Positions 29,352-62,081 of a DNA stretch of 64,000 nt are shown here, one piece after another. Made by a program: the position numbers and the translations under genes. The stretch is from an uncultured bacterium (GTDB lineage Bacteria > Patescibacteriota > Minisyncoccia > UBA6257 > GWB1-50-10). Below the pieces are notes generated by a model. It was not told the origin of the DNA. It worked only from the letters and a program-made list of their open reading frames with translations, and ran no database searches. The stretch covers positions 7,461 to 71,460 of the forward strand of contig CAVRNT010000002.1 in NCBI GenBank assembly GCA_963722655.1. The letters run 5' to 3'. How positions within the stretch are numbered: the stretch's first letter is position 1; each line of letters opens with the position of its first letter.

Positions 29352-29373
29352 GCTCTTTTCGTTCCTAGCTGTT

Positions 29374-35174: not shown

Positions 35175-35180
35175 ATAAAA

Positions 35181-36173: not shown

Positions 36174-36175
36174 AC

Positions 36176-36979
36176 ATGGAAGAAACACGGAAGATTAAAA
36201 TCGACGAACTGCTAGCCACCGCAAAGGCCAAAGAATGGGAAACACGAGTGCTTCAGGGTAATACCTACAAGAATTTTTCGACCATCATTGTCATTGCGAC
36301 CCGTGGCAAAGGCGTCACGAACGTTAAATGCCCGAAATGCGACCACCCGTTCGAAGTGGAACATTGGGTCGGCCTCCACCCGTGGATAGTGGAGTCGTGG
36401 AAACGATTCATCAAGCCGATGAACATTCCGGTGCAAGAAATAATGATTTCAGGGCACGAGGTAGGTCAAGCTTATGAGGAAGCAGTTCAGGTTATCCTTG
36501 AAACACCGCAGTTCAAAAATTATCGCTACATACTTTTTCTCGAGGATGATATTATCGTGCCATTCATAAACAATTCTTTCGGGCCGCTCATCGAGCTTTT
36601 CAAACATATGGAGAAGTTTGATGTCGCCTCGGCCCTATACTGGACTAAAGGCGAACCGTCTTTACCTCTCGTCTATGGCGACGGTAACATCAACGCGTCC
36701 AGTCCATTCGAGGTCAATACCAATTGGCAGCCCGGTCAGACCGTCGAGGTGAACGGTTGCGGCATGGGCTTCGCACTCATGAAGAAGAATATATTTGAGG
36801 ATCCGCACCTCGAAAGGCCGTTTTTTAAAACCGTAAGTGAGGTTAAAGACGGCCAATACAAGGGTTATACGCAGGACCTGTATTTTTACGAGAAGATAAA
36901 GAGATTGGGTTATAAGATATGTGTTGACACCGGCGTCCGCTGCGGCCACCTGGATTTTCAGAGTGAGGTGGTCTATTGA
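36176..36979 (+). CDS. GT2-like (GT-A fold) glycosyltransferase with N-terminal CxxC element
   Basis: DXD (YILFLEDDII), GT2 C-terminal signature NGCGMGFALMKKNIFED; CPKCDHPF near N-terminus. Confidence 0.55.
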   Translation: MEETRKIKIDELLATAKAKEWETRVLQGNTYKNFSTIIVIATRGKGVTNVKCPKCDHPFEVEHWVGLHPWIVESWKRFIKPMNIPVQEIMISGHEVGQAYEEAVQVILETPQFKNYRYILFLEDDIIVPFINNSFGPLIELFKHMEKFDVASALYWTKGEPSLPLVYGDGNINASSPFEVNTNWQPGQTVEVNGCGMGFALMKKNIFEDPHLERPFFKTVSEVKDGQYKGYTQDLYFYEKIKRLGYKICVDTGVRCGHLDFQSEVVY

Positions 36980-37872
36980 TCATGGAGAGAAACCAGTTCG
37001 ACGAATTATTGGAGAACGTTAAGCGCGTATATGGACCGTTTTATTCATACACTCTTAACTTTGAGAAGACTATTACCCCTAGGGAAGATCTAGGCGTATT
37101 TTTTAACCGCCTATTATACATCACGAACGATATGTTTCGGGATATTCCTATCAAAAAGATCAGAGTTCTAGATCTCGGCTCTTATGAAGGCATATATTCG
37201 GTGGGCTTTGCTCAACTAGGCGCAGAGGTGGTCTCGGTTGAAGGGAGGAGAATCAATTTCGCCAAGATGAAGGTGGCTAAAGAATATCTGGGCTTGCGGA
37301 AGCTCGATGTGGTTCAAGCTGATGTCCGAACCATCACGAGAGAAACATACGGTCGCTTTGACATCGTGCTTGCCTGCGGAATTATGTATCACCTGGATGC
37401 CCCTTCGGTTTTCGAAGTGTCCAAAAACATATCTGATATGGCCGAGCGCTTGGCTATTATCGACACACACATTTCTCTGTCCCGCCCGGTCAGCCATATC
37501 TACAAAGAAAGAGCTTATTGGGGTATGATTCATAAAGAATTCGACGCTGGTATCTCAACTCACGAAAAAGAATTATATCTCGCTAACGCACTAGATAATA
37601 ACGAGAGTTTTTGGCTGACGAAAATTTCCTGGTTAAATCTCCTGAAGAGTCTAGAGTTCAACACGGTTTATGAGTGTTTGGTACCCCAAGCGGAACGGGA
37701 AAAAAGATTATACGACAGAGCAACGCTTGTTGCAGTTAAAAATCTAAAATCTAAATCGTTCTTCCCGGTTTCTATTTCTCCGGACCCGCTATCAGAACAG
37801 ATCGGAGAGACGATATTCATTATGCAGGATAATCAACCCATTCCCAACGATAACGGAATAATTGTAAGATAA
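36976..37872 (+). CDS. Class I SAM-dependent methyltransferase
   Basis: Motif I VLDLGSYEG, acidic loop VVSVEGR, motif FDIVLACGIMYHL. Confidence 0.65.
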   Translation: MIMERNQFDELLENVKRVYGPFYSYTLNFEKTITPREDLGVFFNRLLYITNDMFRDIPIKKIRVLDLGSYEGIYSVGFAQLGAEVVSVEGRRINFAKMKVAKEYLGLRKLDVVQADVRTITRETYGRFDIVLACGIMYHLDAPSVFEVSKNISDMAERLAIIDTHISLSRPVSHIYKERAYWGMIHKEFDAGISTHEKELYLANALDNNESFWLTKISWLNLLKSLEFNTVYECLVPQAEREKRLYDRATLVAVKNLKSKSFFPVSISPDPLSEQIGETIFIMQDNQPIPNDNGIIVR

Positions 37873-37877
37873 AATCC

Positions 37878-38639
37878 GTGGTAGATGTTGTAATCCCAAC
37901 CAAAAAAACTTCACCTTTCTTCGATGCGAGCATCGATTCGTTAAAATACATCCCGTTCCCTTATAAATTACACCTCATTACTAAAGGTACTAGCTGGGCT
38001 GAGGCGATAAATATCGGCTTTGGGGAGAGCGAAAATGATGTGCTCATAATGGACGACGACACGATTCTGGAACCCGACACATTCAGGAATTTTAAACCAA
38101 TTGGGGACATAACCGGATTCAAATTAAGAGGCGGGGATGGGAAAATTAACCATGCCGGGAGCTATGTCGAAATTAGCGATTTCTCATATTGCAATGCTCC
38201 AGTCTCTCCATATTTTCCCGAAACACCGGATATCGTTATTAACTGCCATGCCGGATTTGGGCATCTCTCGGAAGATATAACCGAACCTATCGAGGTTCCT
38301 CATTGCACCGCCTCGCTGCTCTATATCAAGAAAAATGTCTGGCAAAAATTGCACGGTATAGCAACCGACTATCCGGGTTACCAGTACGAGGACGTGGATT
38401 TTTCTTTCCGGGCTCTGAAAGAAGGGTTCAAGATAGTTTGCCTGCCCAATGAAGCGATCCACCATTTGGGAGCAACTAAGGGCTCCGACCCGAATTTCCC
38501 TCAGAAAATGTCGGTCAATCTAAAAATTATCACTCGAAAATTTTTTAGTGACCCGGAATTTATAGGACTCCTTTACAAGAGAGGGCTTGTCAATGGGCAT
38601 TCATCAATCTTTACAAATTCAGATTTTCTGATAAAATAA
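37878..38639 (+). CDS. GT2-like glycosyltransferase
   Basis: N-terminal VVIPTKK, DXD in VLIMDDDTIL, GT-A spacing. Confidence 0.55.
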   Translation: MVDVVIPTKKTSPFFDASIDSLKYIPFPYKLHLITKGTSWAEAINIGFGESENDVLIMDDDTILEPDTFRNFKPIGDITGFKLRGGDGKINHAGSYVEISDFSYCNAPVSPYFPETPDIVINCHAGFGHLSEDITEPIEVPHCTASLLYIKKNVWQKLHGIATDYPGYQYEDVDFSFRALKEGFKIVCLPNEAIHHLGATKGSDPNFPQKMSVNLKIITRKFFSDPEFIGLLYKRGLVNGHSSIFTNSDFLIK

Positions 38640-38704
38640 TTACTTAATTAAGTTCTTTTAAAATTCACTTTCCCCGATAAACTCAGAAATGGAGGACAGC
38701 CGTC

Positions 38705-39706
38705 ATGGCAGAAGAGTTCTACAACAGGTTTAATTCCTTAAAGATCCTGATTTTTTCTGACAGGTTGCAGGAGATCGCTGTCGGCGGATTGCCGTACCCG
38801 TTGATCTGGCACATTTACCCGACCAATCACTGCCCCTTAGATTGCGATTTTTGTATCATGGCCGAGGAAAGGGAAAACAAGGTTTCCCTCCCCAGAGAGA
38901 TTCTTTTGAAGGCTATCCGGGATGCCGCCGAACACGCGAAAACCATACATTTTTCCGGAGGCGGGGAACCGACAGCTCACCCCGATCTTTTGGAAGCGAT
39001 CGAACTAGCTAAGAGATCCGGCTTGAAGGTGGCACTTTCGACCAACGGTGTTTCCCTGACCCAGAAAATATTTGATCTGGTAGATTTTCCGCGGGTCAGC
39101 TTGAACGCTGCTACAAAAGAGGTCTTCCGAAGCAATACCGGCACCGATCTTTGGGACAAAATCATCGAGAACATCAAAGATCTCAAGGGCAACAAGGGTA
39201 AATTAGGACTAGGATTCGTATTGACCCCGGAAAACCAAAGAGACCTTTACGGTTTTTGCAAGTTGGCGAACGACCTCGGCATTAGTTGGGTCCACATCCG
39301 GCCGGCTTTTCTAAAGAAAAGGAACGAAGAGGTCAGAGCCCTGATGCCCGAATCGACCAGGATCATCGATGGTGCTAAGGAGGATTTCCCCGACTTGGTG
39401 ATTCACTTCAAAACGGACAAATTCGACGGCTATTGGACGCCAAGGAGGTACGATAAGTGCCGGGCAACACCATTATTAGCGGTGCTGAAGGCGAACGGCA
39501 AATTCTGCGTTTGCCAAGACAGGGTCGACCTGGAATACGGCGATTATCGGAAACAATCCTTCGAGGAAATTTGGCGCTCAAAAGAACATCTGGAAATACT
39601 GAAGAGAATCAATCTCGAAGAATGTCCCAGATGTGTCGAGACGAAGAAGAACGAGTACATCCAAAAAATCTTCATAGAGGATGGATTTGTAAGAGATATT
39701 CTCTAG
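38705..39706 (+). CDS. Radical SAM enzyme with C-terminal Cys-rich (SPASM/twitch-like) region
   Basis: CPLDCDFC (Cx3Cx2C) at residues about 43-50, GGEP motif (FSGGGEPTAHPDL), C-terminal CVCQDR...ECPRC cysteines. Confidence 0.75.
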   Translation: MAEEFYNRFNSLKILIFSDRLQEIAVGGLPYPLIWHIYPTNHCPLDCDFCIMAEERENKVSLPREILLKAIRDAAEHAKTIHFSGGGEPTAHPDLLEAIELAKRSGLKVALSTNGVSLTQKIFDLVDFPRVSLNAATKEVFRSNTGTDLWDKIIENIKDLKGNKGKLGLGFVLTPENQRDLYGFCKLANDLGISWVHIRPAFLKKRNEEVRALMPESTRIIDGAKEDFPDLVIHFKTDKFDGYWTPRRYDKCRATPLLAVLKANGKFCVCQDRVDLEYGDYRKQSFEEIWRSKEHLEILKRINLEECPRCVETKKNEYIQKIFIEDGFVRDIL

Positions 39707-39721
39707 CATACGTAAGAATTA

Positions 39722-39756
39722 GCCTGTTCAGTTATGAAACTGAACAGGCGTTTTTT
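39722..39756 (+). terminator. Rho-independent terminator after the radical SAM gene
   Basis: GCCTGTTCAGTT-atga-AACTGAACAGGC 12-bp stem followed by TTTTTT. Confidence 0.65.
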
Positions 39757-39776
39757 AAAATAGGCCTCGCGCGCTG

Positions 39777-39785
39777 TGTTATAAT
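39777..39785 (+). promoter_or_regulatory. Candidate extended -10 promoter (TGtTATAAT) for downstream methyltransferase
   Basis: TGTTATAAT at 39777-39785; SD AAGAGGGA 8 nt before ATG 39810. Confidence 0.35.
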
Positions 39786-39809
39786 GCCATACGTAAGAGG
39801 GATGAAACC

Positions 39810-40319
39810 ATGAAACTGGATATCGGCTGTGGCCCAAATAGACAGAAAGGATTTAAGGGAACGGACGTCATTTCAGGACCTACCGTGGATTTTGTTTTGG
39901 ACCTGGAGAAATTTCCTTGGGAACCGTTCGCGGACAACTCCTGCGACGAAATCTACACGTCTCATTATGTGGAAAAAACGAAAGACCTCATTAAGTTTAT
40001 GGACGAAATGTGGCGCATCTGCACTCCGAACGCTAAAATTACGATAGTCGCCCCTTACTACACCTCGATCCGCGCCTTTCAGGATCCCATGGCGACCCGT
40101 TTGCTTTCCGAAGCCACGTGGCCATATTTCAATAAGGAATGGCGCACCGCAAACAAGCTCGATCACTACCCGATCAAGTCGGATTTTGCCATTGAAAAAA
40201 TAATGGTCTTTTTTAACCAGCCATGGGACAAGAAATCCGAGGAGGCAAGGGAGTTCGCTAAAACCCATTACTGGAACGTCGTCTCCGATATTCTCGTCGA
40301 GCTCAAAGCCGTAAAATGA
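39810..40319 (+). CDS. SAM-dependent methyltransferase (type 11-like, small)
   Basis: Motif I LDIGCGPN, acidic DVIS, SCDEIYTSHYVE motif. Confidence 0.65.
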   Translation: MKLDIGCGPNRQKGFKGTDVISGPTVDFVLDLEKFPWEPFADNSCDEIYTSHYVEKTKDLIKFMDEMWRICTPNAKITIVAPYYTSIRAFQDPMATRLLSEATWPYFNKEWRTANKLDHYPIKSDFAIEKIMVFFNQPWDKKSEEAREFAKTHYWNVVSDILVELKAVK

Positions 40320-40816
40320 AGATCAAGACCAAGGCAAAGATCGGCCGCGAATATCGCGTCTTGGCCATCGCGGTCGTTTTCTTTGCCGTCGGCCTTTTTT
40401 TCTTTATCAAGGACCAAACGATACCGGCGCCGCAGACTAAGCCGACGGCCGCGCCAACATTGAGCGTCGCTTCGCCCCAGGGGGCAAGTTTCCCCGATCC
40501 GACATTCGCCAAATATCCTGCGCCATCCAATTTCGAAAAATTCACCTATGAGAATGGAGAGATCGACGGCGCGAGCAGCTTGAGCGTCTCTGCGACCTGC
40601 AATGGCCAATACGTCGCCATCCTGATATATCCCGGGAACTTCGATTACCGGTTGGATGTGAGCCGGTCCGTTTACAACAAATCGTTCCCTTGCGACACCG
40701 GAAAAACCTTCAATCACATCATCGAAGCAGCGGACCTTTCAACCCTCCAGCCGGGAAGTTATTACCTGATGACGGCTGACCAGGGAGCGAGCGGCCCGTG
40801 GTATAATCCTAAGTAG
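40316..40816 (+). CDS. Secreted small protein carrying the same C-terminal 2-Cys domain as the 31445-32965 product
   Basis: TM VLAIAVVFFAVGLFFFI; SATCNGQYVAILIYPGNFDY...NKSFPCDTGKTFNHI...GSYYLMTADQGASGPWYNPK aligns with the C-terminus of the 506-aa protein. Confidence 0.5.
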   Translation: MKIKTKAKIGREYRVLAIAVVFFAVGLFFFIKDQTIPAPQTKPTAAPTLSVASPQGASFPDPTFAKYPAPSNFEKFTYENGEIDGASSLSVSATCNGQYVAILIYPGNFDYRLDVSRSVYNKSFPCDTGKTFNHIIEAADLSTLQPGSYYLMTADQGASGPWYNPK

Positions 40817-41254: not shown

Positions 41255-42589
41255 ATGCTCAAGGGAGGGTCCGCTATCTCGCTGGCCGCTTTAATCCTCG
41301 CGCTCGCCGCCTTGCCGTCGGCGCGGGCTTTTAATTCTACATCGACCGATTTCTTCCTGCGCGGTGACGTCCAAAGCATCGGCGGGCGGACGACCTCCAC
41401 CGATTTCATTATCTTTAACAACGGTGCGGTGGATGCCCTGAATCTCGCGACCTCGACGGATTTCCAGCTCATCCCGGGCCTCATCCGCGCCCTTTTCCAG
41501 TCGCCCGCGCCGACCTACACGCTCATACATTATCATTTCCGTTTTGACAACGGCACGGAGCAGACGGCGAGTTCCGCGACGAATGGGATTGAAGATGTTG
41601 CCCTCACGAACTGGGCACAGAGCACGAGCACGCGACTCCGGGTGGAGATCTCGAACACCGGCGGGACCATCATCAACTACACCTCACAACAGTTCCGCAT
41701 CGAATACGGGCTCTTGAGTTCCTCCTGCGCGTCCTCGTCCTATTCCGCTGTAACGAGCACGGGCGCCTGGACGATGTTCAATTCGGGCAATTTGAACGAC
41801 GCCTCGGACACCACGAACATCGCGGTATCGACGGGCGGCGTTTTGGACACCAACCATACCTTCCTCACGCCGAACGGGGGAGTGCGAGATTCTTCGAACC
41901 AGACGGGCGCGCTTTCATTACCATTACCGAGCGATTCTTTCGCGGAACTGGAATACGACATCCAGGCGGTCGCGAGCTCTACCCCCGGCGCCACTTACTG
42001 TTTCCGGGTCACGAACGCCGGTAGCGCGACAAGCTTCGCTTATTCCCAATATCCCCAGATAACCTTGGTGGGCGGCGCCCAGTCCATCTCGCTCGTCATC
42101 TCCACAACGACCGTGAACTTGCCGGGCCTCGCTCCGGGGACGCCCATCACGGGAACCTCGACCGCGACGGTCACATTGACTGGCGGCACTCATGGCTACA
42201 GTTTGCAGATTCAAAGGAACTCGTCCACCTCCACGCTCTCGTCCTCCACCACTCCGTTCCCGGATTACGCCTCCTGGAATCCATCAAGCACCAACTGCAC
42301 ATCGGGAGAGGGGAACGCCACGACGACCCCCGGGAAGACATTTGCCCTCCGCGTTCAGCAGACGGGCACGACGGCGAACTACTGCTCTTTCTGGTGGGGA
42401 GCGAGCGACGCAAGCGGCACCGCCCTTTACGCCGGGGTGCCGACGAGCACCGTGACGATCGTTAACGCCACCTCAACGAACAACGGCACCTCCACCTCGA
42501 CCATTCTTTACCGGGCCGACGTGCCTTCAACCCAAAAAGCCACGAATTATACCGGATTAGTGACCATCACCGTCCTGGCCAACCCGTGA
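41255..42589 (+). CDS. Secreted Ser/Thr-rich protein with repeated TSTDF motifs and C-terminal domain paralogous to the next gene
   Basis: Signal peptide; three N-terminal (S/T)STDF(F/I/Q) repeats; C-terminal NSSTSTLSSSTTPFPDYASWN...FALRVQQTGTTANY...WWG...GVPT...TNYTG. Confidence 0.5.
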   Translation: MLKGGSAISLAALILALAALPSARAFNSTSTDFFLRGDVQSIGGRTTSTDFIIFNNGAVDALNLATSTDFQLIPGLIRALFQSPAPTYTLIHYHFRFDNGTEQTASSATNGIEDVALTNWAQSTSTRLRVEISNTGGTIINYTSQQFRIEYGLLSSSCASSSYSAVTSTGAWTMFNSGNLNDASDTTNIAVSTGGVLDTNHTFLTPNGGVRDSSNQTGALSLPLPSDSFAELEYDIQAVASSTPGATYCFRVTNAGSATSFAYSQYPQITLVGGAQSISLVISTTTVNLPGLAPGTPITGTSTATVTLTGGTHGYSLQIQRNSSTSTLSSSTTPFPDYASWNPSSTNCTSGEGNATTTPGKTFALRVQQTGTTANYCSFWWGASDASGTALYAGVPTSTVTIVNATSTNNGTSTSTILYRADVPSTQKATNYTGLVTITVLANP

Positions 42590-42626
42590 TATCCACAGCT
42601 ATAGTCAAAACCGGTATGTTATAATA

Positions 42627-43292
42627 GTGTCAATGAGGAAGGCAATAAAAACGCTCTCTTTCGAAGGTTATGTCGTGGCAATATCGGTCGCGGTCTTCAC
42701 GGCGGTGGCTCTTTTTGCCGCTATTCCATCGCTCGTACCCCAGGTTTTCGCGAGCACGTCCACGTCAACGGGCCAGACGATAAATTTGACGGTGAATCAG
42801 ACGATCACGCTCACCGTCCCGGCCGCGGTCAGCATGACGGCCCTCACGCCGGGCAACAACACGCCGAGTATCTCGACGACGACCGCGGTCGTTTCGACGA
42901 ACGCATCGAACGGCTGGAACTTGCAAATCAATCGCAATTCCTCTACCTCGACTCTTGCCTCGTCGACCATAAATTTCCCGGACTACACTTCCTGGAACGG
43001 GAGCAGTAATGCGGCTACATCTTCCGTCGTCGCACAGACCTTCGCCTTCCGCGTCTACCAGACCGGGACGACCGGAGGTATCTACAACACCACCTGGTGG
43101 GGGACGAACGACACGGACCCGAACGCTAAATTCGGCGGCGTGCCGACGGGTGCAACTACAATGGCGAGTACGAGCACCTACAGCGGTTCATCTCAAACCG
43201 TCGTCTTCGGTTTCCGGGCCGACGCACCGGCCACCCAAGCCGCCACGAACTACACCGGCAACATCACCGTGACCGCGATCGCCCTTCCGTAA
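42627..43292 (+). CDS. Secreted paralogue of the C-terminal domain of the preceding gene
   Basis: NSSTSTLASSTINFPDYTSWN...FAFRVYQTGTTGGIYNTTWWG...GVPT...ATNYTG collinear with 41255-42589 C-terminus. Confidence 0.5.
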   Translation: MSMRKAIKTLSFEGYVVAISVAVFTAVALFAAIPSLVPQVFASTSTSTGQTINLTVNQTITLTVPAAVSMTALTPGNNTPSISTTTAVVSTNASNGWNLQINRNSSTSTLASSTINFPDYTSWNGSSNAATSSVVAQTFAFRVYQTGTTGGIYNTTWWGTNDTDPNAKFGGVPTGATTMASTSTYSGSSQTVVFGFRADAPATQAATNYTGNITVTAIALP

Positions 43293-43332
43293 AGCGCTTG
43301 CCGGCCAAGGGCTGAGCTGTATAATAAGGGGG

Positions 43333-44238
43333 ATGGTCAATAAACGATTCAGATTTTTCTTCGCTATTACCGCCATTACGGTAATATTTTTATCTCCGGT
43401 CTTAGCCAACGCCCAGGTCGGGATCTCGCTCTTCCCAATCAAGTTCGATGTTACGGTCGCGCCGGGGCAGACCTACTCCGACACCGTTACCGTCATCAAC
43501 CCCAACGATTTCCCGATCGGCGTCCAGCCAGAGGTGGAGAACATCGCGGGCGGCAATCAGGGCTCCATCGACCTCGTTGACACAGACATCCCGCACGGCC
43601 TTTCGGCTTGGATCCAGATCGACCGAACCCAGTTCACCTTGGCCCCGCAGGAAAGACGACAGGTGTCGTTCTCTATCGTGGTCCCGGAAAACGGCGAGCC
43701 CGGAGGCCACTACGGCGCTATTCTCTTTAGAGGCGTAACGGTCGCGGGGAATCCCGCCGCGACCGGCGTCGGTATTTCCGGCCGAGTCGGTTCGGTGATC
43801 CTCGTGAACGTCCCAGGCGCCTCTTACGCCACCGGCAATTTGGCCGACTTCGCCGGTCCTAGTTCCTACGTCTCCCACGGCCCGGTGAACTTCTCCTTTA
43901 CCGTCAACAACACCGGCAACACCCATTTCAGCCCCCAAGGCCAAATCACATTGAACGGCCCCTTATTGGGGACCATCCAAATACCCTTTGATTCTGGCAT
44001 CATTTTCCCTGGTTACAACCGCGTTTTCACAGCCTCCTGGCCAAACCGGTACGGTTTCGGCCCGCTCACGGCTACCCTTTCGGTCCAGATCCCGGGGAGC
44101 GGGACAGTGACAAAAACGCTTCATTTCTTCATGTTCCCGTGGCAGGAAGCCTTCGGCATACTGGTAATTCTGCTCGTCCTGATCTTCTCCTTCCGGGGCG
44201 TCAAGAAGAACTTCCGGATAGTCCGCGTTCAGAGGTAA
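43333..44238 (+). CDS. Cell-surface protein, DUF916-like ectodomain with C-terminal TM anchor (DUF3324-like)
   Basis: Signal peptide, beta-rich domain, C-terminal WQEAFGILVILLVLIFSF + RGVKKNFR; architecture as in Firmicute WxL-locus DUF916 proteins. Confidence 0.45.
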   Translation: MVNKRFRFFFAITAITVIFLSPVLANAQVGISLFPIKFDVTVAPGQTYSDTVTVINPNDFPIGVQPEVENIAGGNQGSIDLVDTDIPHGLSAWIQIDRTQFTLAPQERRQVSFSIVVPENGEPGGHYGAILFRGVTVAGNPAATGVGISGRVGSVILVNVPGASYATGNLADFAGPSSYVSHGPVNFSFTVNNTGNTHFSPQGQITLNGPLLGTIQIPFDSGIIFPGYNRVFTASWPNRYGFGPLTATLSVQIPGSGTVTKTLHFFMFPWQEAFGILVILLVLIFSFRGVKKNFRIVRVQR

Positions 44239-44239
44239 C

Positions 44240-45439
44240 GTGAAAAATGTCATCTTCTGGTCAGCGCTCATCTCCTTAACGGCCTTTTGCCTGCCGGCGG
44301 CCGAAGCCCAGGTCATCCCGCCCGCGAGCGGCACGACCGCGGTCTCCATTACGGTCATCTTCCCACCGGCGGCTCCAAGCGATCTCTCGGCCTCGGCCAT
44401 CTCGAACTCGCAGATAAATTTGGCCTGGACGGACAACTCCAATAACGAAACCGGCTTCAGCATCGAGGAGGCGGTCGGCAACGATTCCATCTTCACGCCG
44501 ATCGATTCCGTCGGACCGAACGTCACGACCTATTCACGAACCGGGCTCCTCGCGAGCACGGACTATTTTTATCGAATTCGGGCCTATAACATTGCCGGTC
44601 CGAGCAACTACTCGAACGAGGCTTCGACGACAACGCCCGCCGCGCCCGTGACTCCTCCTCCGCCTCCGCCACCGACGGGTGGAGGCGGAGGAGGCGGAGG
44701 AAGTTATTCACCTTTGCCTAATGCCGGCACCGCGGTTAGTTTTGCCGGCCACGCGTTCCCCAAGACGCAGGTGACGCTTCTCAAGGATGCTCAGGTCGTC
44801 GCGAGCACCGTCGCGAGCGACGACGCGAGTTTTCAGATGTCCCTTTCCGGACTTTCCGCCGGCAACTACATCTTCTCGCTCTACGGCACTGATGCTTACG
44901 GCAACCGCTCCGCCCTCCGCACCTTCCCCTTGAGCGTTACGAGCGGGGCGAGCACCAACGTGAGCGGCATCTTCATCGCGCCCACGCTCACGACCGATAA
45001 GAGCACGGTGAAACAGGGAGACCCGATCACCTTCTTCGGTCAGACCGTCCCCGCTGGCGTCGTCACGATCGCCGTGAATTCAAGCGGCGGTTTTTACGTG
45101 ACGACGACTGCCGATCAATCAGGTGAATACCTCAAGGAATTCGACACGACCCCGTTGGATTTCGGTCAGCACACGGCCTATGCCCGCACATCCGCCATGA
45201 ACCTCGTGACGGACAACAGCAGCGTCATCGGCTTCAATGTCGGCACGACGAACGTCAAGAACAACCCCAAGGCCTCTAAGGGCGACCTGAACGGCGACAA
45301 CCGAGTGAACATCGTGGATTTCTCCATAATGGCCTACTGGTACGGCAAAAAGAATCCACCGAAGAGCATAGACATTGGCGGCTTCGGTGTCGTTGACCTT
45401 CGGGATTTCAGCATTCTCGCATACAATTGGACAGGCTAA
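44240..45439 (+). CDS. Secreted FN3-domain protein with poly-Pro/Gly linker, Ig-like domain and C-terminal dockerin
   Basis: FN3 (INLAWTDNSNNETGFSIEEA...STDYFYRIRAYNIAGPSNYSNEAS), PPPPPPPTGGGGGGGG linker, dockerin repeats DLNGDNRVNIVDFSIMAYWYG and DIGGFGVVDLRDFSILAYNW. Confidence 0.65.
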   Translation: MKNVIFWSALISLTAFCLPAAEAQVIPPASGTTAVSITVIFPPAAPSDLSASAISNSQINLAWTDNSNNETGFSIEEAVGNDSIFTPIDSVGPNVTTYSRTGLLASTDYFYRIRAYNIAGPSNYSNEASTTTPAAPVTPPPPPPPTGGGGGGGGSYSPLPNAGTAVSFAGHAFPKTQVTLLKDAQVVASTVASDDASFQMSLSGLSAGNYIFSLYGTDAYGNRSALRTFPLSVTSGASTNVSGIFIAPTLTTDKSTVKQGDPITFFGQTVPAGVVTIAVNSSGGFYVTTTADQSGEYLKEFDTTPLDFGQHTAYARTSAMNLVTDNSSVIGFNVGTTNVKNNPKASKGDLNGDNRVNIVDFSIMAYWYGKKNPPKSIDIGGFGVVDLRDFSILAYNWTG

Positions 45440-45443
45440 ATCA

Positions 45444-46355
45444 ATGAAGAAATACCTTTTAATGATAATCTTGTTCTCGCTGGCTTTGACCTCCAAAGCC
45501 GCCTCGTTAAGCTTAGAAACGCCGAACCCAATCGTTCCTCTGGGCACACCCTTTGCGGTGACCGTCTATTTGGACCCCCAAGGCCAGAGCGTGAACGCCT
45601 TGGAGGGTAACTTGACCTTTCCAAACGACAAACTCCAATTGGAGAACGTCTACGGCAGCGATTCCATCGTGAGCCTTTGGATCGAACGCCCGCATGAGGC
45701 GGTTTCCGGCACGATCGCCTGGAGCGGGATAATGCCCGGCGGTTTCGGCGGCGTATTGGAACCGAATGAGGCCCAACCCACTCCGGGCCAAGTGGCCGTC
45801 GCGGTCTTCAAGCCGCTCCAGATCGGAACCGCCACCATCGGTTTCGGAAATGTCTCGGTGCTCTTAAACGATGGTCGAGGGACGCCGGCCACCGTCACGA
45901 TGAGCACCCTCACCGTCTCCGTCGCTGCCTCAAGCTCGACGGCCGGAGCGGCCTTGCCTACCGCGCTCATCGGTGACAATGTTCCGCCGGAACCCTTCCA
46001 AATCAACCTAAGTCGTTCTCCCAACCTCTTTAATGACCAATGGTTCATCGCCTTCGTCGCCCACGACAAAGGGACAGGTGTTGCTTCCTACGACGTCTTG
46101 GAATCGAGAACGCCGGTCGTCGACTTCAGCAGTGCTGCCTGGCAACCGGTAATAAATCCGTATGTCTTAAAAGATCAATCTCTAGCGAGCTATGTTTACG
46201 TGAGAGCGACGGACTACGCCGGGAACTCCCGCCTCGCCTCTTTGCCGCCGACGCGCCAGAACGCATTGTCACCAGTCCTGACCTATCTGTTAGTTATAAT
46301 AATAGGAGCGGCATCTTTCATCCTATGGCTGACTTTAAGAAAGAGAAAAAACTGA
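45444..46355 (+). CDS. Cohesin-like domain protein with C-terminal TM anchor
   Basis: Signal peptide; GTPFAVTVYLDPQGQSVNALEGNLTFPNDKLQLENVYGSDSIV...GQVAVAVFKPLQIGTATIGFGNVSVLLNDGRG cohesin-type pattern; C-terminal VLTYLLVIIIGAASFILWL + RKRKN. Confidence 0.55.
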   Translation: MKKYLLMIILFSLALTSKAASLSLETPNPIVPLGTPFAVTVYLDPQGQSVNALEGNLTFPNDKLQLENVYGSDSIVSLWIERPHEAVSGTIAWSGIMPGGFGGVLEPNEAQPTPGQVAVAVFKPLQIGTATIGFGNVSVLLNDGRGTPATVTMSTLTVSVAASSSTAGAALPTALIGDNVPPEPFQINLSRSPNLFNDQWFIAFVAHDKGTGVASYDVLESRTPVVDFSSAAWQPVINPYVLKDQSLASYVYVRATDYAGNSRLASLPPTRQNALSPVLTYLLVIIIGAASFILWLTLRKRKN

Positions 46356-48079
46356 AATTCGTTTGCCTGACCGCCGTTGTCGCGGCGGTCTTCCTCGTCT
46401 TTCCGACGGCCCGGGCCGCCGGCGCCTCTTTCACCTTTTCGGCCCAGACCGGCTCTTATGAGGTCGGCGATGCTATCCCGATTACGGTCTATATCCAGAG
46501 TCCGGGTCAATCCATCAATGCCGTCTCCGGCGCGATCTCCTTCCCGAGTGACAAATTGGCGGTCACCTCCATATCGCAGAGCGGTTCCATCGTTAACCTC
46601 TGGGTTCAAAACCCGAGCTATTCCAACGGTGCCGGTACGGCTAACTTCCAAGGAGTGGTTCTGAATCCGGGTTTCGTTGGTTCCAACGGAACGATCATTA
46701 CCATCAATTTCAAGGCGATTGCCCCAGGCGTCGCTCTCGTTTCTTTCACTTCCGGTTCCATTCTCGCGAACGACGGCCAGGGCACGAACATCCTGGACCC
46801 GGACGGATTGCCTTCCGATCAATACGCCATCAACGTACTGGGAACGACTAGCAACGGTCTGACGAGCACTCCGAACAGCGCGAATGGACCGCTTGCGACC
46901 GTGATTTCATCACCGACCCATCCCGACCCGACGAAGTGGTATTCCGAGAACGATGCAAAGTTCGTTTGGACAGTCCCCGACGGCGTTGACGCCGTGCGCT
47001 TGCTCTACAACAAATACTCCAACTCGACACCGACCGTGCTCTACCAACCGCCGATCAGCGAAAAGGAACTCACGGGGCTAGACGACGGCGTCTGGTATTT
47101 CCACATCCAGTTCCATGACGCGAGTGGCTGGGGGAACATCGCCCATTTCAAATTCCAAGTAGACACGACGCCACCTAATCCGTTCCAAATCGGTTTCGTG
47201 TCCAGCGCCGATCCAACAGACCCACGACCGACTGCCATTTTGAATGCCACCGACGCGCTTTCTGGTATCGCTTATTACAAGATAAAGATTGATGACCAGA
47301 ATTTCATAACAGTTTCGGCCAGCCAAGCACAAAGCGGCCCCTATCAGCTACCAGTCCAAGCGAGCGGCGCCCACAACATTTTGGTCCAGGTCTTTGACCA
47401 AGCTGGCAATTATCAAACCGCTATCGGGCAGTTCACCGTCGCGCCGATCGATCCTCCGATGATTGTGAACTACACCACCCAATTCCGGTCCGGCGAGTAT
47501 CTGGTCGTCAAGGGCACGACCTACCCGAACGCCACCGTGACCGTCCACCTCGAAGGGAGCGGCGTTCTACCGAAGAGCTGGACGGGCGTAAGCGACAGCT
47601 CCGGTGCCTTTACGGTCACCGGTGACGGCGCGATCGACGCAGGCGCTTACAAGATGTACGCCACCGTGACCGACAGCCGGGGCGCTCAAAGCCCGCCGAC
47701 CCAGCAGTACGACGTTGCGGTCGCGCCGAGCACTTTCCTCGGCATCGGCAACTACGCCATCAGCTTAATCGCCATAGTGATCTCGCTCATCATCGTTCTG
47801 CTCGTAGTCGGGGCGTTCCTGCTCGGTCCCGGGCGGGTCCACGCAATCAGAAAAGGTGTGACCTTGGAGACGAAGACGGCCGAGCGCGACGTGGAACGCG
47901 CCTTCAACTCCTTGCGACAGGATATTAAGACCCACGTCCGCTTCTTGGAGAAGGTGAAATCGATGCGCGACCTGACGAAAGAGGAAGGAATGATCTTAAA
48001 GCAGCTCAAGGACGATCTGGAACGCTCGGAGAAGTCCATCGAGAGCGACCTCGAGAAGATCGAAAAACAGCTGAAATAA
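46325..48079 (+). CDS. Cohesin-like domain surface protein with Ig-like repeats, C-terminal TM and cytoplasmic coiled-coil tail
   Basis: Start ATG 46325 (MADFKKEKKLKFVCLTAVVAAVFLV); GDAIPITVYIQSPGQSINAVSGAISFPSDKLAVTSISQSGSIVNLW...GTIITINFKAIAPGVALVSFTSGSILANDGQG cohesin-like; TM ISLIAIVISLIIVLLVVGAFLL; charged coiled-coil C-terminus. Confidence 0.55.
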   Translation: MADFKKEKKLKFVCLTAVVAAVFLVFPTARAAGASFTFSAQTGSYEVGDAIPITVYIQSPGQSINAVSGAISFPSDKLAVTSISQSGSIVNLWVQNPSYSNGAGTANFQGVVLNPGFVGSNGTIITINFKAIAPGVALVSFTSGSILANDGQGTNILDPDGLPSDQYAINVLGTTSNGLTSTPNSANGPLATVISSPTHPDPTKWYSENDAKFVWTVPDGVDAVRLLYNKYSNSTPTVLYQPPISEKELTGLDDGVWYFHIQFHDASGWGNIAHFKFQVDTTPPNPFQIGFVSSADPTDPRPTAILNATDALSGIAYYKIKIDDQNFITVSASQAQSGPYQLPVQASGAHNILVQVFDQAGNYQTAIGQFTVAPIDPPMIVNYTTQFRSGEYLVVKGTTYPNATVTVHLEGSGVLPKSWTGVSDSSGAFTVTGDGAIDAGAYKMYATVTDSRGAQSPPTQQYDVAVAPSTFLGIGNYAISLIAIVISLIIVLLVVGAFLLGPGRVHAIRKGVTLETKTAERDVERAFNSLRQDIKTHVRFLEKVKSMRDLTKEEGMILKQLKDDLERSEKSIESDLEKIEKQLK

Positions 48080-48116
48080 GGCGGCGCAGCGGCGCCCAAT
48101 CGGGTATAATGATATT

Positions 48117-48596
48117 ATGAAACATTTTAAATTTTTACCGTTCCTGACGGCCGAGGCGCACTGCGACGTGCCCTGCGGCATCTATGACCCGACGCCGGCG
48201 AAGATCGCCGCGAAGACCGTCGCCAGAATGGTCGACCAAATAGCGGACATCCATCCGCCGCAGGATTGGAACGACGCCGCGGCGGCTTCGGCTTACGTCC
48301 AAAGTATCGCCCGACGCGTGGCCGTGAAGGAGGAGCACGCCCAGATCTGTAAGAAGGAGCTTTCTGTTCTTTGGTCCGATTTCTTCAAGCCGGAGCATCT
48401 CGTGAAGTACCCGAACCTGCACAATTTGTTCTGGAAAGCGGCCAAACTCTGTTCCAAGGACAAGCAGACGATCAGCAAGGAGGATGCCGTCGCCCTCGTC
48501 GGCGCCGTGGATGAAATCGCCCGGGTCTTTTACGAAGTGAAGGGCGATCCGAAGAGATACGAGGCCTATAAGGAAATCACCGACAAGCTATACTAA
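48117..48596 (+). CDS. sodN: Nickel superoxide dismutase precursor
   Basis: 14-aa leader then Ni-hook HCDVPCGIYDP; LSVLWSDFFKPEHLVKYPNLHNL matches the NiSOD core (LDVLWSDYFKP...YPELH in Streptomyces). Confidence 0.88.
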   Translation: MKHFKFLPFLTAEAHCDVPCGIYDPTPAKIAAKTVARMVDQIADIHPPQDWNDAAAASAYVQSIARRVAVKEEHAQICKKELSVLWSDFFKPEHLVKYPNLHNLFWKAAKLCSKDKQTISKEDAVALVGAVDEIARVFYEVKGDPKRYEAYKEITDKLY

Positions 48597-48601
48597 AACT
48601 T

Positions 48602-48640
48602 GGAGGTTGAACCTCCCAGGAGGTTCAACCTCCTGATTTT
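48602..48640 (+). terminator. Strong hairpin (14-bp stem) between sodN and sodX; terminator/attenuator-like
   Basis: GGAGGTTGAACCTC-ccag-GAGGTTCAACCTCC then TGATTTTA directly abutting ATG 48641; stem contains the only GGAGG Shine-Dalgarno-like sequences. Confidence 0.45.
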
Positions 48641-48910
48641 ATGAGGCCGTTCATCTTCAAGGTTCAGGTCAGCGGCGAGAGCCTCTGGCCCGAACTCGTG
48701 CCCGGCCGCATCTACTGGGCGACCGGCCTTTTGGCCCCCAAAGCGGGGGATTATGCCGTCTTTCGAAGTCCCGACGAACCGGGTAAGTTCGTCGTGAAGA
48801 AGGTGAAAAGCGTCCAGGACGGGCTTTATGAGCTCGTCGGGACCGTTCCGTGGTCTTCGTCATACAAAGTGCCAAAAAGCCAGATTTTAGGCCGTCTTTT
48901 GGGCGTTTAG
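48641..48910 (+). CDS. sodX: Putative NiSOD maturation peptidase SodX (S26/S24-like)
   Basis: 89 aa, GESLWPEL (GDSM-like Ser motif) and downstream KKVK; placed by adjacency to sodN. Confidence 0.5.
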   Translation: MRPFIFKVQVSGESLWPELVPGRIYWATGLLAPKAGDYAVFRSPDEPGKFVVKKVKSVQDGLYELVGTVPWSSSYKVPKSQILGRLLGV

Positions 48911-48976
48911 CGGCTTGTTTTTGGAGGCCCGATTTGGTATAATTACATCAAGAAAAGGAGCCGAACGGCTATTTTT

Positions 48977-50926
48977 TTGCCCCGTATGCCCAAGGAGAAA
49001 AAAGAAGAAGAAAACAACATTACGAACGGCAGCGCCTCATACAGCGCGAAGGACATCTACGTCTTGGAGGGCTTGGAGCCGGTCCGCCGGCGCCCGGGAA
49101 TGTACATCGGCTCGACGGGCGTCGACGGCCTGCATCACCTGGTCTGGGAGATCGTGGACAACTCCATCGACGAGGCGATGGCCGGCTTCGCCAAGAACAT
49201 CAAGGTGGAACTCCTCAAGGACAACAAGGTGGCCGTCACGGACGACGGCCGCGGCATTCCGGTGGACATCCATCCCCAAACCAAGAAATCGGCCCTCGAG
49301 ACCGCGCTCTGCACGCTCCACGCGGGCGGCAAGTTCGGCGGCGAATCCTACAAGGTCTCGGGTGGCTTGCACGGCGTGGGCGTCTCCGTTGTGAACGCAC
49401 TCTCGGTCTGGATGAAAGCGGAGGTCAACAAGGATGGCGGGCTTTACGTCCAGGAGTACAAGCGCGGCAAACCGCAGTACAACGTCAAAAAGATCGCCAA
49501 GTCCGATACGACGGGTACGAAGATAATTTTCCAGCCCGACCCGGAGATATTCCAGACGATAGAGTTCGACCGCAAGAAGATCTTGGACCATCTGCGCCAG
49601 CAGGCCTATCTCACAAAGGGCATCCGGATAGAAGTTCTGGACGAGCGCGAGGAGAGACCGTTTTATTACGGCTTTTACTTCGACGGCGGTTTGAGCTCGT
49701 TTATCCATTATCTTTTGGACGACGAGCCGGTCCTTTTGGACGAGAACTTCTACGTCCACAAGGCCTCCGAAGGGATCGACGTCGAAGCGGTCTTCACCTA
49801 CGTGGACGACCAGGAAGCGAAGGAACTGTCCTTCGCGAACAACATTTATACCCCCGACGGCGGCATGCATTTGACCGGCCTCCGAGCCGCCCTCACGCGC
49901 ACCTTGAACGACTACGCCCGGAGCGAAGGATATTTGAAGGAGAGCGATGAGAACCTCACCGGCGACGACATCCGCGAGGGGATCGTGGCCATCGTCTCGG
50001 TGAAGATCCGCGAGCCCCAGTTCGAAGGCCAGACCAAGGCCCGTCTGGGGAATCCCGAGGCGCGCCCGGCCGTCGAGACGGTCGTCGCCGACGCCCTCAA
50101 GGAATTTTTGGAAAAGCACGGTAGTGAGGGCCGGAAGATGATCGAGAAGAACCTCTTGGCCGCGAAGGCCAGGAAGGCCGCGAAGGCGGCGAAAGACACC
50201 GTCCTCAGAAAAGGCGCCTTGGAAGGGCTCACGCTTCCGGGGAAGCTCGCCGACTGCTCATCACGCAAGGCCGAGGAATCGGAGCTCTACATCGTCGAGG
50301 GCGACAGCGCCGGCGGTTCCGCCAAGCAGGGCCGCGACCGCCGCTTCCAGGCCATTTTGCCCCTCCGCGGCAAGATAATGAACGTGGAGAAGTCCCGCAT
50401 CGACAAGATGCTCCTCAACAAGGAGATCCGCGCCTTGGTCGTCGCCTTGGGCACGGCCATTTCCGAGAACTTCGACATCACGAAGCTTCGCTACCACAAG
50501 ATCGTCATTATGACCGATGCCGACGTGGACGGCGCCCACATCCGGACCTTACTCCTCACGCTCTTTTACCGCTACTTCCCGAAGATCGTTGAGGACGGCT
50601 ATCTCTACATCGCCCAGCCGCCGCTCTTCCAGCTCCGCAAAGGCAAAGAGATGAGCTACGCCTACACCGATGCCGAGCGCGACAGGATCTTGAAGAAAAT
50701 GGGGGACGGCGTCACGATCCAGCGTTACAAGGGTTTAGGCGAGATGAACCCCTCTCAGCTTTGGGAAACGACGATGGATCCCGCAAAGCGCCTCTTCCTC
50801 AAGGTCACGGTGGACGACGCTCTGGAGGCCGACAAGCTCTTTGACGTATTGATGGGGGAGCTCGTGGAGCCACGCAAGAACTTCATCCAGGCCAACGCCG
50901 TTTACGCCAAGAACATAGATATATAA
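48977..50926 (+). CDS. gyrB: DNA gyrase subunit B (compact form lacking the large insert)
   Basis: GHKL ATPase motifs (VLEGLE..RRPGMYIGS, GLHGVG), TOPRIM EGDSAGGSAKQGRDRRFQAILPLRGKI, C-terminal PLF..KGLGEMNPSQLWETTMDP. Confidence 0.93.
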   Translation: MPRMPKEKKEEENNITNGSASYSAKDIYVLEGLEPVRRRPGMYIGSTGVDGLHHLVWEIVDNSIDEAMAGFAKNIKVELLKDNKVAVTDDGRGIPVDIHPQTKKSALETALCTLHAGGKFGGESYKVSGGLHGVGVSVVNALSVWMKAEVNKDGGLYVQEYKRGKPQYNVKKIAKSDTTGTKIIFQPDPEIFQTIEFDRKKILDHLRQQAYLTKGIRIEVLDEREERPFYYGFYFDGGLSSFIHYLLDDEPVLLDENFYVHKASEGIDVEAVFTYVDDQEAKELSFANNIYTPDGGMHLTGLRAALTRTLNDYARSEGYLKESDENLTGDDIREGIVAIVSVKIREPQFEGQTKARLGNPEARPAVETVVADALKEFLEKHGSEGRKMIEKNLLAAKARKAAKAAKDTVLRKGALEGLTLPGKLADCSSRKAEESELYIVEGDSAGGSAKQGRDRRFQAILPLRGKIMNVEKSRIDKMLLNKEIRALVVALGTAISENFDITKLRYHKIVIMTDADVDGAHIRTLLLTLFYRYFPKIVEDGYLYIAQPPLFQLRKGKEMSYAYTDAERDRILKKMGDGVTIQRYKGLGEMNPSQLWETTMDPAKRLFLKVTVDDALEADKLFDVLMGELVEPRKNFIQANAVYAKNIDI

Positions 50927-60207: not shown

Positions 60208-60282
60208 GGCCCTATCGTCTAGTGGCTAGGACGGCGCCCTCTCACGGCGCAAACAGGGGTTCGACTCCCCTTGGGGCTACCA
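60208..60282 (+). tRNA. tRNA-Glu (anticodon CTC), CCA encoded
   Basis: Acceptor GGCCCTA/TGGGGCT (two G.U pairs), anticodon stem GCGCC/GGCGC loop CTCTCAC, T-arm AGGGG-TTCGACT-CCCCT, 3' ACCA. Confidence 0.75.
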
Positions 60283-61759
60283 AATTAGATTTTTTACCGT
60301 CGTAAGTCTGGTTAAGCTCATAAATCTTAGCCAATTTACTGTTTCCAAATCTCTTGCCGTCAAAGTATATTTTTTCGGGAAATACGTTCTTTTGGAAACG
60401 CATTTTAAAGTCATAGCGGAGCCGCTTCCATGTTGCTGCGCTATTACGAACGAACTCGAAGCAGTATGCTAGTGCCTCGTCCATATTGAATTCATCAATG
60501 CGGTTTTCGTTCCCAAGCCGGGATTTCTCGCGGATCTTATTATTGATGATATTCTTCTGCTCAAGAAACTCATCATCGTTATAAACGCCGGACCTATGAA
60601 GATTGAAGATTTCCTGTCGTTCATTTTCCAGTTTTTCAATTTCCCGCCGAAGTTGGCCGTTAGCCGCGTCGAACTTCTTAAAATTTGATTGCCAAACATC
60701 AATCATGATTTCCCTGAACCACTTCTCGTACCTGACATTCGGTGTGATGGAATGCAAGTACTCAATAAACAACTCCTCAAATGTTGACTTGGGTATGAAC
60801 GAAGCGTTTCTGCATTCTTGCTTGTGGTGATGATAATATGGATATCGTTTGCCGTTTCTACCTCGTGAATTACTCCCAGTGATCTGGCATAAGCAATCCG
60901 AGCAGAAAGATCTCCGCAATGGGAAATCCTCATTAACGACCTGCCGTCTGAAGGATCGGTTGTTGCTCTCACGCCTCGCTTGGCACCTGGCAAAAAGTTC
61001 CTTCGAGACAATAGGCTCGAAGTTGCCCTCCACACGAAAGCCCCAAACATCTATGATGCCGGCGTATATTTCATTCTTAGTAATCTTCTCAATGAGCTGC
61101 GGGAAGGGTCTTTTTCCGTGCCTTGTTCTAAGACCTCGTTCCGCCACGAAATCAGACAAAGACTCATAGCTATACGTCCCCTTAGCCCACTCATCAAAGA
61201 TAAGCCGAATATATGCTGCTTTTTCAGGATCGGGAACGATGTTGGAGCCATGGTGCGGGCGATAATAGCCAAGGGGCGACTGCCAAACCCAGATCCCTTG
61301 TTTGATGCGCTCTATCATCCCACTTTTGGTTCTTTCAGTTCTCATATTATTATCAAGTTCAGCGAACACAGAAATCATTCCTTCCATCGCCCTGCCTATC
61401 GAGGTCTCATTAATCGGTTCGGTGACAGACCGCAACTCAGTGTTGTAACGTCTCAACATTCCTCGCACGGAGACATGATCGTCCTGGTTCCTTGAAAAAC
61501 GATCGAGCTTGTAAACAATAAAGAAATTTACAGGCCGCTTTTTATTCGAACAGAGGCTAATTGCCTTTAGGAATTCGGGGCGATCCGCTGTCTTCGCTGA
61601 CTCGCCCTTGTCAATGAACGCAGCTAATACTTCGATATTGTTTCTTGACGCCCATTCACGACAAAGGCGTTCTTGCATTTCTAAGCTCGTACCTTCAACC
61701 TGCTCCTTCGAAGATACGCGGCAATAAATCACTCCTGTTCTATTCCCCTCGATTTGCAT
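60242..61759 (-). CDS. Large serine recombinase (resolvase/integrase family)
   Basis: N-terminal catalytic domain GVIYCRVSSKEQ (Ser nucleophile), DRFSRN, then recombinase domain and Cys-rich region (CSDCLCQ...C). Confidence 0.85.
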   Translation of the reverse strand: MQIEGNRTGVIYCRVSSKEQVEGTSLEMQERLCREWASRNNIEVLAAFIDKGESAKTADRPEFLKAISLCSNKKRPVNFFIVYKLDRFSRNQDDHVSVRGMLRRYNTELRSVTEPINETSIGRAMEGMISVFAELDNNMRTERTKSGMIERIKQGIWVWQSPLGYYRPHHGSNIVPDPEKAAYIRLIFDEWAKGTYSYESLSDFVAERGLRTRHGKRPFPQLIEKITKNEIYAGIIDVWGFRVEGNFEPIVSKELFARCQARRESNNRSFRRQVVNEDFPLRRSFCSDCLCQITGSNSRGRNGKRYPYYHHHKQECRNASFIPKSTFEELFIEYLHSITPNVRYEKWFREIMIDVWQSNFKKFDAANGQLRREIEKLENERQEIFNLHRSGVYNDDEFLEQKNIINNKIREKSRLGNENRIDEFNMDEALAYCFEFVRNSAATWKRLRYDFKMRFQKNVFPEKIYFDGKRFGNSKLAKIYELNQTYDGKKSNLVAPRGVEPLFAP

Positions 61760-61941
61760 AACTTAATTCTATTAGCTTCCCGCAATCTTTGTAAGACCCC
61801 AACGGGATATTTGGAAACAGCTCCATTTTCAAGCCAGTCATCAAAAATCAGCTGGCCTAGGTCATAAAGAGCGTTGCGAATTTCAATAATCTCATCATCA
61901 GACAGATGAATTTCCGCATCTTGTTTCATGTTCCTTCTCAT
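61729..61941 (-). CDS. Small hypothetical protein (70 aa) upstream of recombinase
   Basis: ORF overlapping recombinase start by about 30 nt; acidic; no family. Confidence 0.3.
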   Translation of the reverse strand: MRRNMKQDAEIHLSDDEIIEIRNALYDLGQLIFDDWLENGAVSKYPVGVLQRLREANRIKLCKSRGIEQE

Positions 61942-62081
61942 CCACGATAGGGGAACATGGGGGAAATCTTAAGGTGGGACTTATTGCTAGAAGGAGGACA
62001 TTGTCCAGTCGTACCGGTGAATTACCCCGTTGGGAATACCATTGAAATGTAAAGAATAGTAAACTATACTAACATGGCAGA

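Follow-up and report, generated by a model that had tools for sequence, protein, structure and literature searches.

A 64,000-nucleotide stretch of DNA from an uncultured bacterium (contig CAVRNT010000002.1 of assembly GCA_963722655.1), referred to below as the window, contains two adjacent genes that very probably form an oxidative-stress operon of a Parcubacterial organism. The first gene, sodN, encodes the precursor of a nickel superoxide dismutase (NiSOD). The second encodes a short protein that is predicted to be a SodX-type peptidase, which would remove the leader from the SodN precursor. Both open reading frames (ORFs) that had been proposed for this locus are present on the plus strand, with lengths of 159 and 89 residues, and the pair is a genuine two-gene operon.

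The NiSOD precursor

The sodN product matches the equivalog profile TIGR02753 ('superoxide dismutase, Ni') with a score of 155.9 bits (E 7.6e-46), against a curated cutoff of 90. It also passes the cutoff of the Pfam family PF09055 (Sod_Ni), with 143.1 bits against 25. The only solved structures matched by SodN are those of Streptomyces NiSOD (1T6I, 1Q0D, and 1T6U), with scores of about 73 bits and E values of about 3e-19. These matches, the profile scores in particular lying well above the curated cutoffs, confirm the assignment of the protein as a NiSOD. The internal block around YPNLH, which had been taken as NiSOD-like, is read in SodN as LSVLWSDFFKPEHLVKYPNLH, and the motif VLWSD[FY]FKP.H..KYP.LH aligns with the Streptomyces NiSOD structures. 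Neither top matches to non-SOD families nor loss of the nickel-binding hook in a proper alignment, both named beforehand as grounds for rejecting the assignment, was seen in the profile searches and alignments. The elements of the gene are as follows.

48117..48596, plus strand: sodN, NiSOD precursor of 159 residues (TIGR02753, PF09055, and PDB NiSOD matches)
48117..48158, plus strand: SodN leader, codons 1–14, MKHFKFLPFLTAEA, predicted to be removed (alignment to mature Streptomyces NiSOD)
48159..48191, plus strand: codons of the Ni-hook HCDVPCGIYDP, with His1, Cys2, Cys6, and Tyr9 of the mature enzyme (read from the DNA)

The start of SodN, as read from the DNA, consists of MKHFKFLPFLTAEA followed directly by HCDVPCGIYDP. 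The hook HCDVPCGIY occupies residues 15–23 and fits the pattern H-C-x-x-P-C-G-x-Y, and in the alignment with the mature Streptomyces NiSOD chains of the PDB, His15 falls on their residue 1 or 2. In an alignment of 23 SodN relatives, residues His-15, Cys-16, Asp-17, Pro-19, Cys-20, Tyr-23, and Pro-25 are invariant. The 14-residue leader ends in A-E-A, and both alanines, Ala-12 and Ala-14, are at least 90% conserved in the alignment of relatives. An A-x-A leader end lies right before HCD in nearly all of 80 sodN loci, which were taken from bacterial and archaeal assemblies represented by one genome per species. Peptidases of the S26 family prefer small residues at positions -3 and -1. The original prediction of a His1-Cys2-Cys6 hook behind a cleavable leader of 14 residues is upheld by the invariance of the hook residues and by the alignment of His15 to the mature His1.

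The NiSOD system is predicted to be cytoplasmic, because the N terminus of SodN has the features of a pro-sequence, and neither SodN nor SodX has a signal peptide or a membrane segment. In the proposed mechanism, SodX, with Ser14 as nucleophile and Lys53 as general base, would cut after the A-E-A of the leader and thus remove residues 1–14. The cut would expose His15 as the new N terminus (His1). The amine and imidazole of His1, the amide of Cys2, and the thiolates of Cys2 and Cys6 would then fold round nickel as the 'Ni-hook', and the mature SodN would cycle between Ni(II) and Ni(III), dismutating superoxide in the cytoplasm.

A total of 5342 homologues of SodN were found, and the closest ones, several dozen in number, come from metagenome-assembled genomes (MAGs) of Patescibacteria. 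The ratio of nonsynonymous to synonymous substitution rates (dN/dS) of sodN is 0.06–0.09 against three orthologues; these values are rough, with dS near saturation. Parcubacterial SodN differs from Streptomyces NiSOD by two features that the latter does not have. One is an insertion of ~13 residues after helix 1, and the other is a conserved C-terminal extension of ~17 residues with the pattern PxRYxAYxxITDKL[YF]. At the same place, SodN of Dehalococcoidia has a tail with the pattern YSDPNAxVR[FY]G.

The downstream gene for a predicted peptidase

The gene that follows sodN encodes a small protein with a putative Ser/Lys catalytic dyad.

48641..48910, plus strand: sodX-like gene, 89-residue cytoplasmic Ser/Lys (S26-type) peptidase, predicted SodN leader peptidase (synteny, dyad, family profiles, and fold)
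48680..48682, plus strand: codon of Ser14 in the motif G-E-S-L-W-P, predicted nucleophile (invariance and SpsB alignment)
48797..48799, plus strand: codon of Lys53 in the motif V-K-K-V, predicted general base (invariance and SpsB alignment)

A search with phmmer showed that, with only a few exceptions among the 50 closest loci, a SodX homologue lies immediately 3' of sodN and in the same orientation. A profile made from these homologues also reaches longer S26-like genes that adjoin sodN in loci of Chloroflexota, Acidobacteriota, and archaea. Residues Gly-12, Ser-14, Pro-17, and Lys-53 are invariant in 33 SodX homologues and in 49 of 49 copies, down to 24–29% identity, and the motifs around the dyad can be written as G-E-S-[LM]-W-P and [VI]-K-[KR]-[VI]. 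When the profile of the SodX family was compared with the PDB, the dyad motifs aligned to the nucleophile and general-base motifs of Staphylococcus aureus SpsB and Escherichia coli LepB. The serine motif of the window protein aligns to GESMDP of SpsB, and Lys53 aligns to the lysine of the SpsB motif VKRV.

The AlphaFold2 model of SodX consists of an all-beta domain, with a predicted local distance difference test score (pLDDT) of 76.3 and a predicted template modelling score (pTM) of 0.64. The top 37 matches of a Foldseek search of the PDB with this model are all LexA, UmuD', the C-terminal domain of lambda cI, SpsB, or LepB, mostly with a template modelling score (TMq) of 0.65–0.75. These top matches are exclusively Ser/Lys-dyad peptidases of clan SF. 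The sodX gene is under purifying selection, with a dN/dS of ~0.14 against the two closest orthologues, which is a rough value given that dS is near saturation.

At the level of the family, TIGR02754, the profile of the NiSOD maturation protease, is matched by 30 of the 33 SodX homologues at E <= 0.01 (best, 3.9e-22), and bacterial signal peptidase I is matched by 24 of the 33. Because so many homologues match these families, the window protein is best placed as a divergent tip of the SodX family. A word-indexed homologue search with the window protein returned only five proteins, none of which has a precomputed Pfam domain. In contrast, when a profile of the SodX subclade was run exhaustively with HMMER against 1.84 billion cluster representatives, 90 of them matched at E <= 1e-3, including 53 at E <= 1e-10. 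The word-indexed search was thus insensitive, and the SodX family is not rare.

Several points weigh against this assignment, and against the view of the gene pair as a working NiSOD system. The best family of the window protein is TIGR02754, but the score is only 23.1 bits (E 7.7e-05), which is below the curated cutoff of 63.25, and its Pfam S26 and S24 matches are also sub-threshold. The confidence of the AlphaFold2 model is only moderate, and the model was based on an alignment of five sequences. The C-terminal S26 motif, which has the form GDNxxxSxDSRxFG in canonical SodX relatives, is replaced by G-T-V-S-W-x-S-S-x-D-F-G in most Parcubacterial copies; the subclade of the window protein has a further deletion of four residues, so that WSSSYK is left and the full motif is absent. 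With regard to nickel supply, nearly every ORF of appreciable size in the window was scanned with Pfam or NCBIfam and a hydropathy screen was applied, and no recognisable NiCoT, UreH/SodT, HupE, CbiMNQO, or Nik system was found in the 64 kb. The only multi-pass membrane proteins found in the window are an ABC-2 exporter pair (1123-2692) and an M50 peptidase (9475-10101). Finally, cleavage, nickel loading, and enzyme activity are predicted from work on Streptomyces and Prochlorococcus.

The reduced C-terminal motif probably explains the sub-threshold score of the window protein. We conclude that the 89-residue protein is a predicted SodX in the broad family sense and in its predicted function, though it fails the curated equivalog test. 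The original prediction of an S26-like SodX thus holds with regard to synteny, the Ser/Lys dyad, the family-level matches to TIGR02754, and the predicted fold, whereas the score of the protein itself stays below the TIGR02754 cutoff. Automated pipelines will probably call it hypothetical, because the score is below that cutoff and no Pfam domain is precomputed. The strict linkage to sodN, on the other hand, allows a confident annotation as SodX.

One reading that keeps both functions, and that we hold to be rather unlikely, is that the Parcubacterial pair is a distinct sub-type of the system. It would combine a minimal SodX of ~85–90 residues, which has shed the C-terminal S26 motif, most fully in the subclade of the window protein, and thus falls short of the curated SodX model, with a SodN tail that possibly serves a different assembly or recognition, and nickel might be obtained without a dedicated importer, either scavenged from a host or taken up by a non-specific route.

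It is improbable that the 89-residue ORF is instead a degenerate or non-specific S24/S26-like relic, or a peptidase for another substrate, with SodN being processed by, for example, a general signal peptidase or autocatalysis. The sub-threshold scores, the partial loss of the C-terminal motif, and the lack of a precomputed Pfam domain on the five close homologues would suit such a relic. However, the gene adjoins sodN in nearly all of the closest loci, down to 29% identity, and in some relatives the stop codon of sodN and the start codon of sodX abut as TAATG. The invariant dyad and the low dN/dS also speak against a relic, and most members of the family match TIGR02754, with E values as low as that given above.

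Operon layout, host lineage, and surroundings

In the window, sodX starts 44 nucleotides after the sodN stop codon. A scan of both strands for terminator-like elements showed a perfect inverted repeat in this gap, and a box resembling a -10 element was found ahead of sodN.

48602..48633, no strand assigned: perfect 14-bp inverted repeat (GGAGGTTGAACCTCC CA GGAGGTTCAACCTCC) in the sodN-sodX gap (terminator-like scan of both strands)
48103..48110, plus strand: GGTATAAT, a -10-like box ending 6 nucleotides before the sodN ATG (read from the DNA)
48103-48110, 48936-48943, 759-766, 40800-40807, and, on the minus strand, 42546-42553: the copies of GGTATAAT (window scan)

The inverted repeat is followed by TGATTTT and then by the ATG of sodX. 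The RNA hairpin that it would form has a folding energy of -28.4 kcal/mol (z = -5.3), and none of 200 shuffled sequences was as stable; the motif occurs only once in the whole window. Of the related loci, L005 has half a copy of the hairpin and L003 and L004 have none, and in the latter two the sodN stop and sodX start form the TAATG junction. The hairpin as a conserved regulatory element was therefore rejected. It is a lineage-specific, terminator-like or attenuator-like element that could attenuate sodX relative to sodN. More speculatively, it would lower either the read-through into sodX or its translation, and a lower output of sodX would suit an abundant enzyme that needs its protease only in catalytic amounts.

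The box GGTATAAT occurs five times in the window, where 0.76 copies are expected, and the second copy lies in the gap before the downstream gene gyrB. The excess and the position of the box suggest that GGTATAAT is a possible promoter of a separate sodN-sodX transcript, which would be leaderless or nearly so, although a scan for the two hexamers of a full sigma-70 promoter upstream of sodN found none. It may also be an extended -10 promoter element of this organism more generally, with a hint of leaderless transcripts.

The gyrB gene lies outside the SOD system and serves as a marker of the host lineage and of vertical inheritance.

48986..50926, plus strand: gyrB, downstream neighbour of the sodN-sodX pair (Pfam DNA_gyraseB, Toprim, and HATPase_c)

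The closest named relatives of its product, with 74–81% identity, come from MAGs labelled 'Patescibacteria group', Minisyncoccia, Candidatus Jorgensenbacteria, Brennerbacteria, and Parcubacteria. In the ribosomal operon of the window, the gene for S5 (22276-22773) ends two bases before that for L15 (22775-23194), which is followed by SecY, and there is no gene for ribosomal protein L30 between S5 and L15. Brown et al. in 2015 are said to have described the absence of L30 as a hallmark of the Candidate Phyla Radiation (CPR). Because of the GyrB relatives and the missing L30, the host is assigned to the Parcubacteria-type CPR/Patescibacteria bacteria, in agreement with the earlier guess of a CPR host. 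Several close GyrB relatives (P0220, P0250, P0251, P0253, P0261, and P0285) have a length of ~1030–1100 residues and contain an intein (PF14890), and the GyrB of the window, with 646 residues, is without one.

The four closest genomes (L002–L005), whose GyrB proteins are 77–94% identical, share the gene order sodN-sodX-gyrB with the window; one of these, L004, consists of one chromosome with a length of 804,691 bp. The G+C content around the operon is 0.566, inside the range of 0.55–0.60 that is typical of most of the window. Because of the conserved order and the typical G+C content, the operon was present in the common ancestor of the local clade, and it is neither a recent import nor a binning artefact.

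The relationships of SodN agree with this. The nearest relatives are almost all from Patescibacteria MAGs (Nealson-, Lipton-, Sung-, Harrisonbacteria, and others) and have 60–84% identity, although the labels of some are generic ones, for example 'Candidatus Saccharibacteria', 'bacterium', and 'Anaplasmataceae'. The window genome is not one of the GTDB species representatives, and the best of the 80 sodN loci from these is 83% identical. The next relatives outside the clade are from Dehalococcoidia and other Chloroflexota, with 46–55% identity, and in a rough neighbour-joining tree the window SodN falls into a clade dominated by Parcubacteria, with a Chloroflexota clade as its sister. A Parcubacteria-type sodN-sodX pair, with the CPR-type SodN tail and a short SodX, is also present on five MAG contigs that bear the label Chloroflexia, Chloroflexi, or Chloroflexota (L031, L046, L048, L049, and L051), and these nest in the CPR clade of the same tree. 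These five loci represent either mis-binning or transfer back into Chloroflexota.

A preprint from 2021 described NiSOD from many MAGs of Patescibacteria, placed these sequences inside or beside those of Chloroflexota, and inferred at least three NiSOD transfers in which Chloroflexota were the donors and Patescibacteria the recipients (10.1101/2021.01.12.426412); the relationships found here reproduce that pattern. Such ancient transfers, the Chloroflexota/Dehalococcoidia origin of the nearest SodN outside the clade, and the five Chloroflexi-labelled loci inside it could suggest that the sodN-sodX pair was recently acquired, or that it is an assembly or binning artefact from Chloroflexota or another aerobe. 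We consider this very improbable. Within a single contiguous sequence, the pair is flanked by CPR-type surface proteins on one side and by Patescibacterial genes for gyrB, L10, and L7/L12 on the other, the same SodN protein occurs on a contig of 278,717 bp, and both the gene order in the four related genomes and the G+C content argue for inheritance within the clade.

Clustering of the neighbouring ORFs in the 50 closest loci showed no conserved nickel transporter beside sodN. In 17 of these loci, sodN is preceded by genes for a class-V aminotransferase (Aminotran_5, cysteine desulfurase-like), a NifU_N scaffold, and a small 4Fe-4S ferredoxin, and in 14 of the 17 the sodN-sodX pair is followed by a gene for an HtrA-like protease (Trypsin_2-PDZ). 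The loci with this arrangement include L022 (2338-5255), L033 (1058-2341), and 15 other CPR loci; the Fe-S assembly/SOD neighbourhood is absent from the window. The association with Fe-S genes fits a protection of Fe-S clusters from superoxide. That SodN might be a NiSOD-like protein with another role, such as storing or buffering nickel or some other redox function, in bacteria mostly described from anoxic settings, is the least probable reading of all: the clade-specific insertion after helix 1 and the conserved C-terminal tail might be taken to favour it, but all hook residues including the catalytic Tyr9 are invariant, the score is far over the equivalog cutoff, related loci place sodN beside Fe-S assembly genes, and SOD genes, whose prevalence in groundwater Patescibacteria has been reported, are enriched in those from oxic groundwater (10.1101/2021.07.28.454184).

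Directly upstream of sodN, six secreted or anchored proteins are encoded in a run (41255-48079). Four of them have fn3, bacterial Ig-like (Big_6/Big_13), dockerin-like, or WxL-interacting domains, and two are without a known domain. The last two of the six are kept upstream of sodN in L003. The six would plausibly serve an episymbiont at its cell surface or in adhesion.

Two regions of the window differ in base composition. A low-G+C island at ~34000-40000 (0.445–0.49, against ~0.57 elsewhere) contains genes for a class-A beta-lactamase-family protein (35181-36173), methyltransferases, a GT2 glycosyltransferase, and a radical SAM/SPASM enzyme (38705-39706), and it possibly represents a gene cluster, gained by horizontal transfer, that serves to modify the cell envelope or peptides. 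From ~60 kb onwards, the G+C content of the window drops to 0.42–0.46. A gene for a large serine recombinase with Resolvase and Recombinase domains (60242-61759, minus strand) overlaps the 3' end of tRNA-Glu(ctc) (60208-60282), and the region 60208-64000 probably represents a mobile element or prophage that has integrated at this tRNA gene. No att direct repeat for the element was found inside the window, so that it probably extends past 64000. The genes for tRNA-Ile(gat) and tRNA-Ala(tgc) are adjacent at 29277-29447, a pair that is usual in the 16S-23S spacer, and an Rfam search found no rRNA genes anywhere in the window.

Significance and comparison with known systems

The Parcubacterial genome appears to carry a complete and selectively maintained cytoplasmic superoxide defence, which adds to the published evidence that many CPR bacteria meet oxygen despite their reputation as anaerobes. 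The sodN-sodX pair is an ordinary member of a type which Patescibacteria have in abundance and which has been described from them before. The surprise at a NiSOD in a CPR organism that was implied originally is unwarranted, as the close relatives are Patescibacterial and NiSOD has been published there; a genome of soil Saccharibacteria also encodes NiSOD (10.1101/211649). Only the divergent SodX, the clade-specific SodN tail, and the source of the nickel are mildly unusual. The words sodX and peptidase do not occur in the main text of the 2021 preprint, and for that reason two small points are added to it here, namely the near-universal linkage of sodN and sodX in Parcubacteria and the short, divergent form of SodX. 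The practical value lies in the correct annotation of SodX in this lineage.

The best known system for comparison is that of Streptomyces, with the NiSOD SodN (SCO5254; PDB codes 1T6U and 1Q0D) and SodX (SCO5255), where SodX is the cognate peptidase of SodN (PMC3919588). Both systems have the hook HCDxPCGxY, a leader of ~14 residues that ends right before His1, the motif VLWSDxFKPxH, and a gene for an S26-type peptidase that adjoins sodN. The overall similarity of the two SodN proteins is modest (~73 bits, E ~3e-19), Parcubacterial SodN has the insertion and the C-terminal extension, and a regulation of the Nur/sodF type is not evident in the Parcubacterial system.

In marine cyanobacteria (Prochlorococcus and Synechococcus), sodN is likewise followed in an operon by a short sodX of ~90–100 residues, and a putative nickel permease, sodT, co-localises with the two genes (PMC4284471). 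SodT, a permease of the UreH family, is the difference between the two systems, since neither such a permease nor any other recognisable nickel importer is encoded in the window or recurs as a neighbour of sodN in the CPR loci. In comparison with the NiSODs of Patescibacteria and Chloroflexota described in the 2021 preprint, the window SodN belongs to that published clade and does not differ in kind.

The SodX protein resembles the type I signal peptidases of the S26 family (LepB and SpsB) and the LexA/UmuD S24 family in the motifs G-x-S-M/L-x-P and [VI]-K-[KR]-[VI] and in the beta-barrel core fold. SodX differs in being without a membrane anchor and in consisting only of a catalytic core of ~85 residues. 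The GDN...DSR motif that the S26 peptidases have at the C terminus is degenerate in the SodX clade. Unlike the secretory signal peptides cut by the S26 signal peptidases, the predicted substrate of SodX is a cytoplasmic pro-enzyme.

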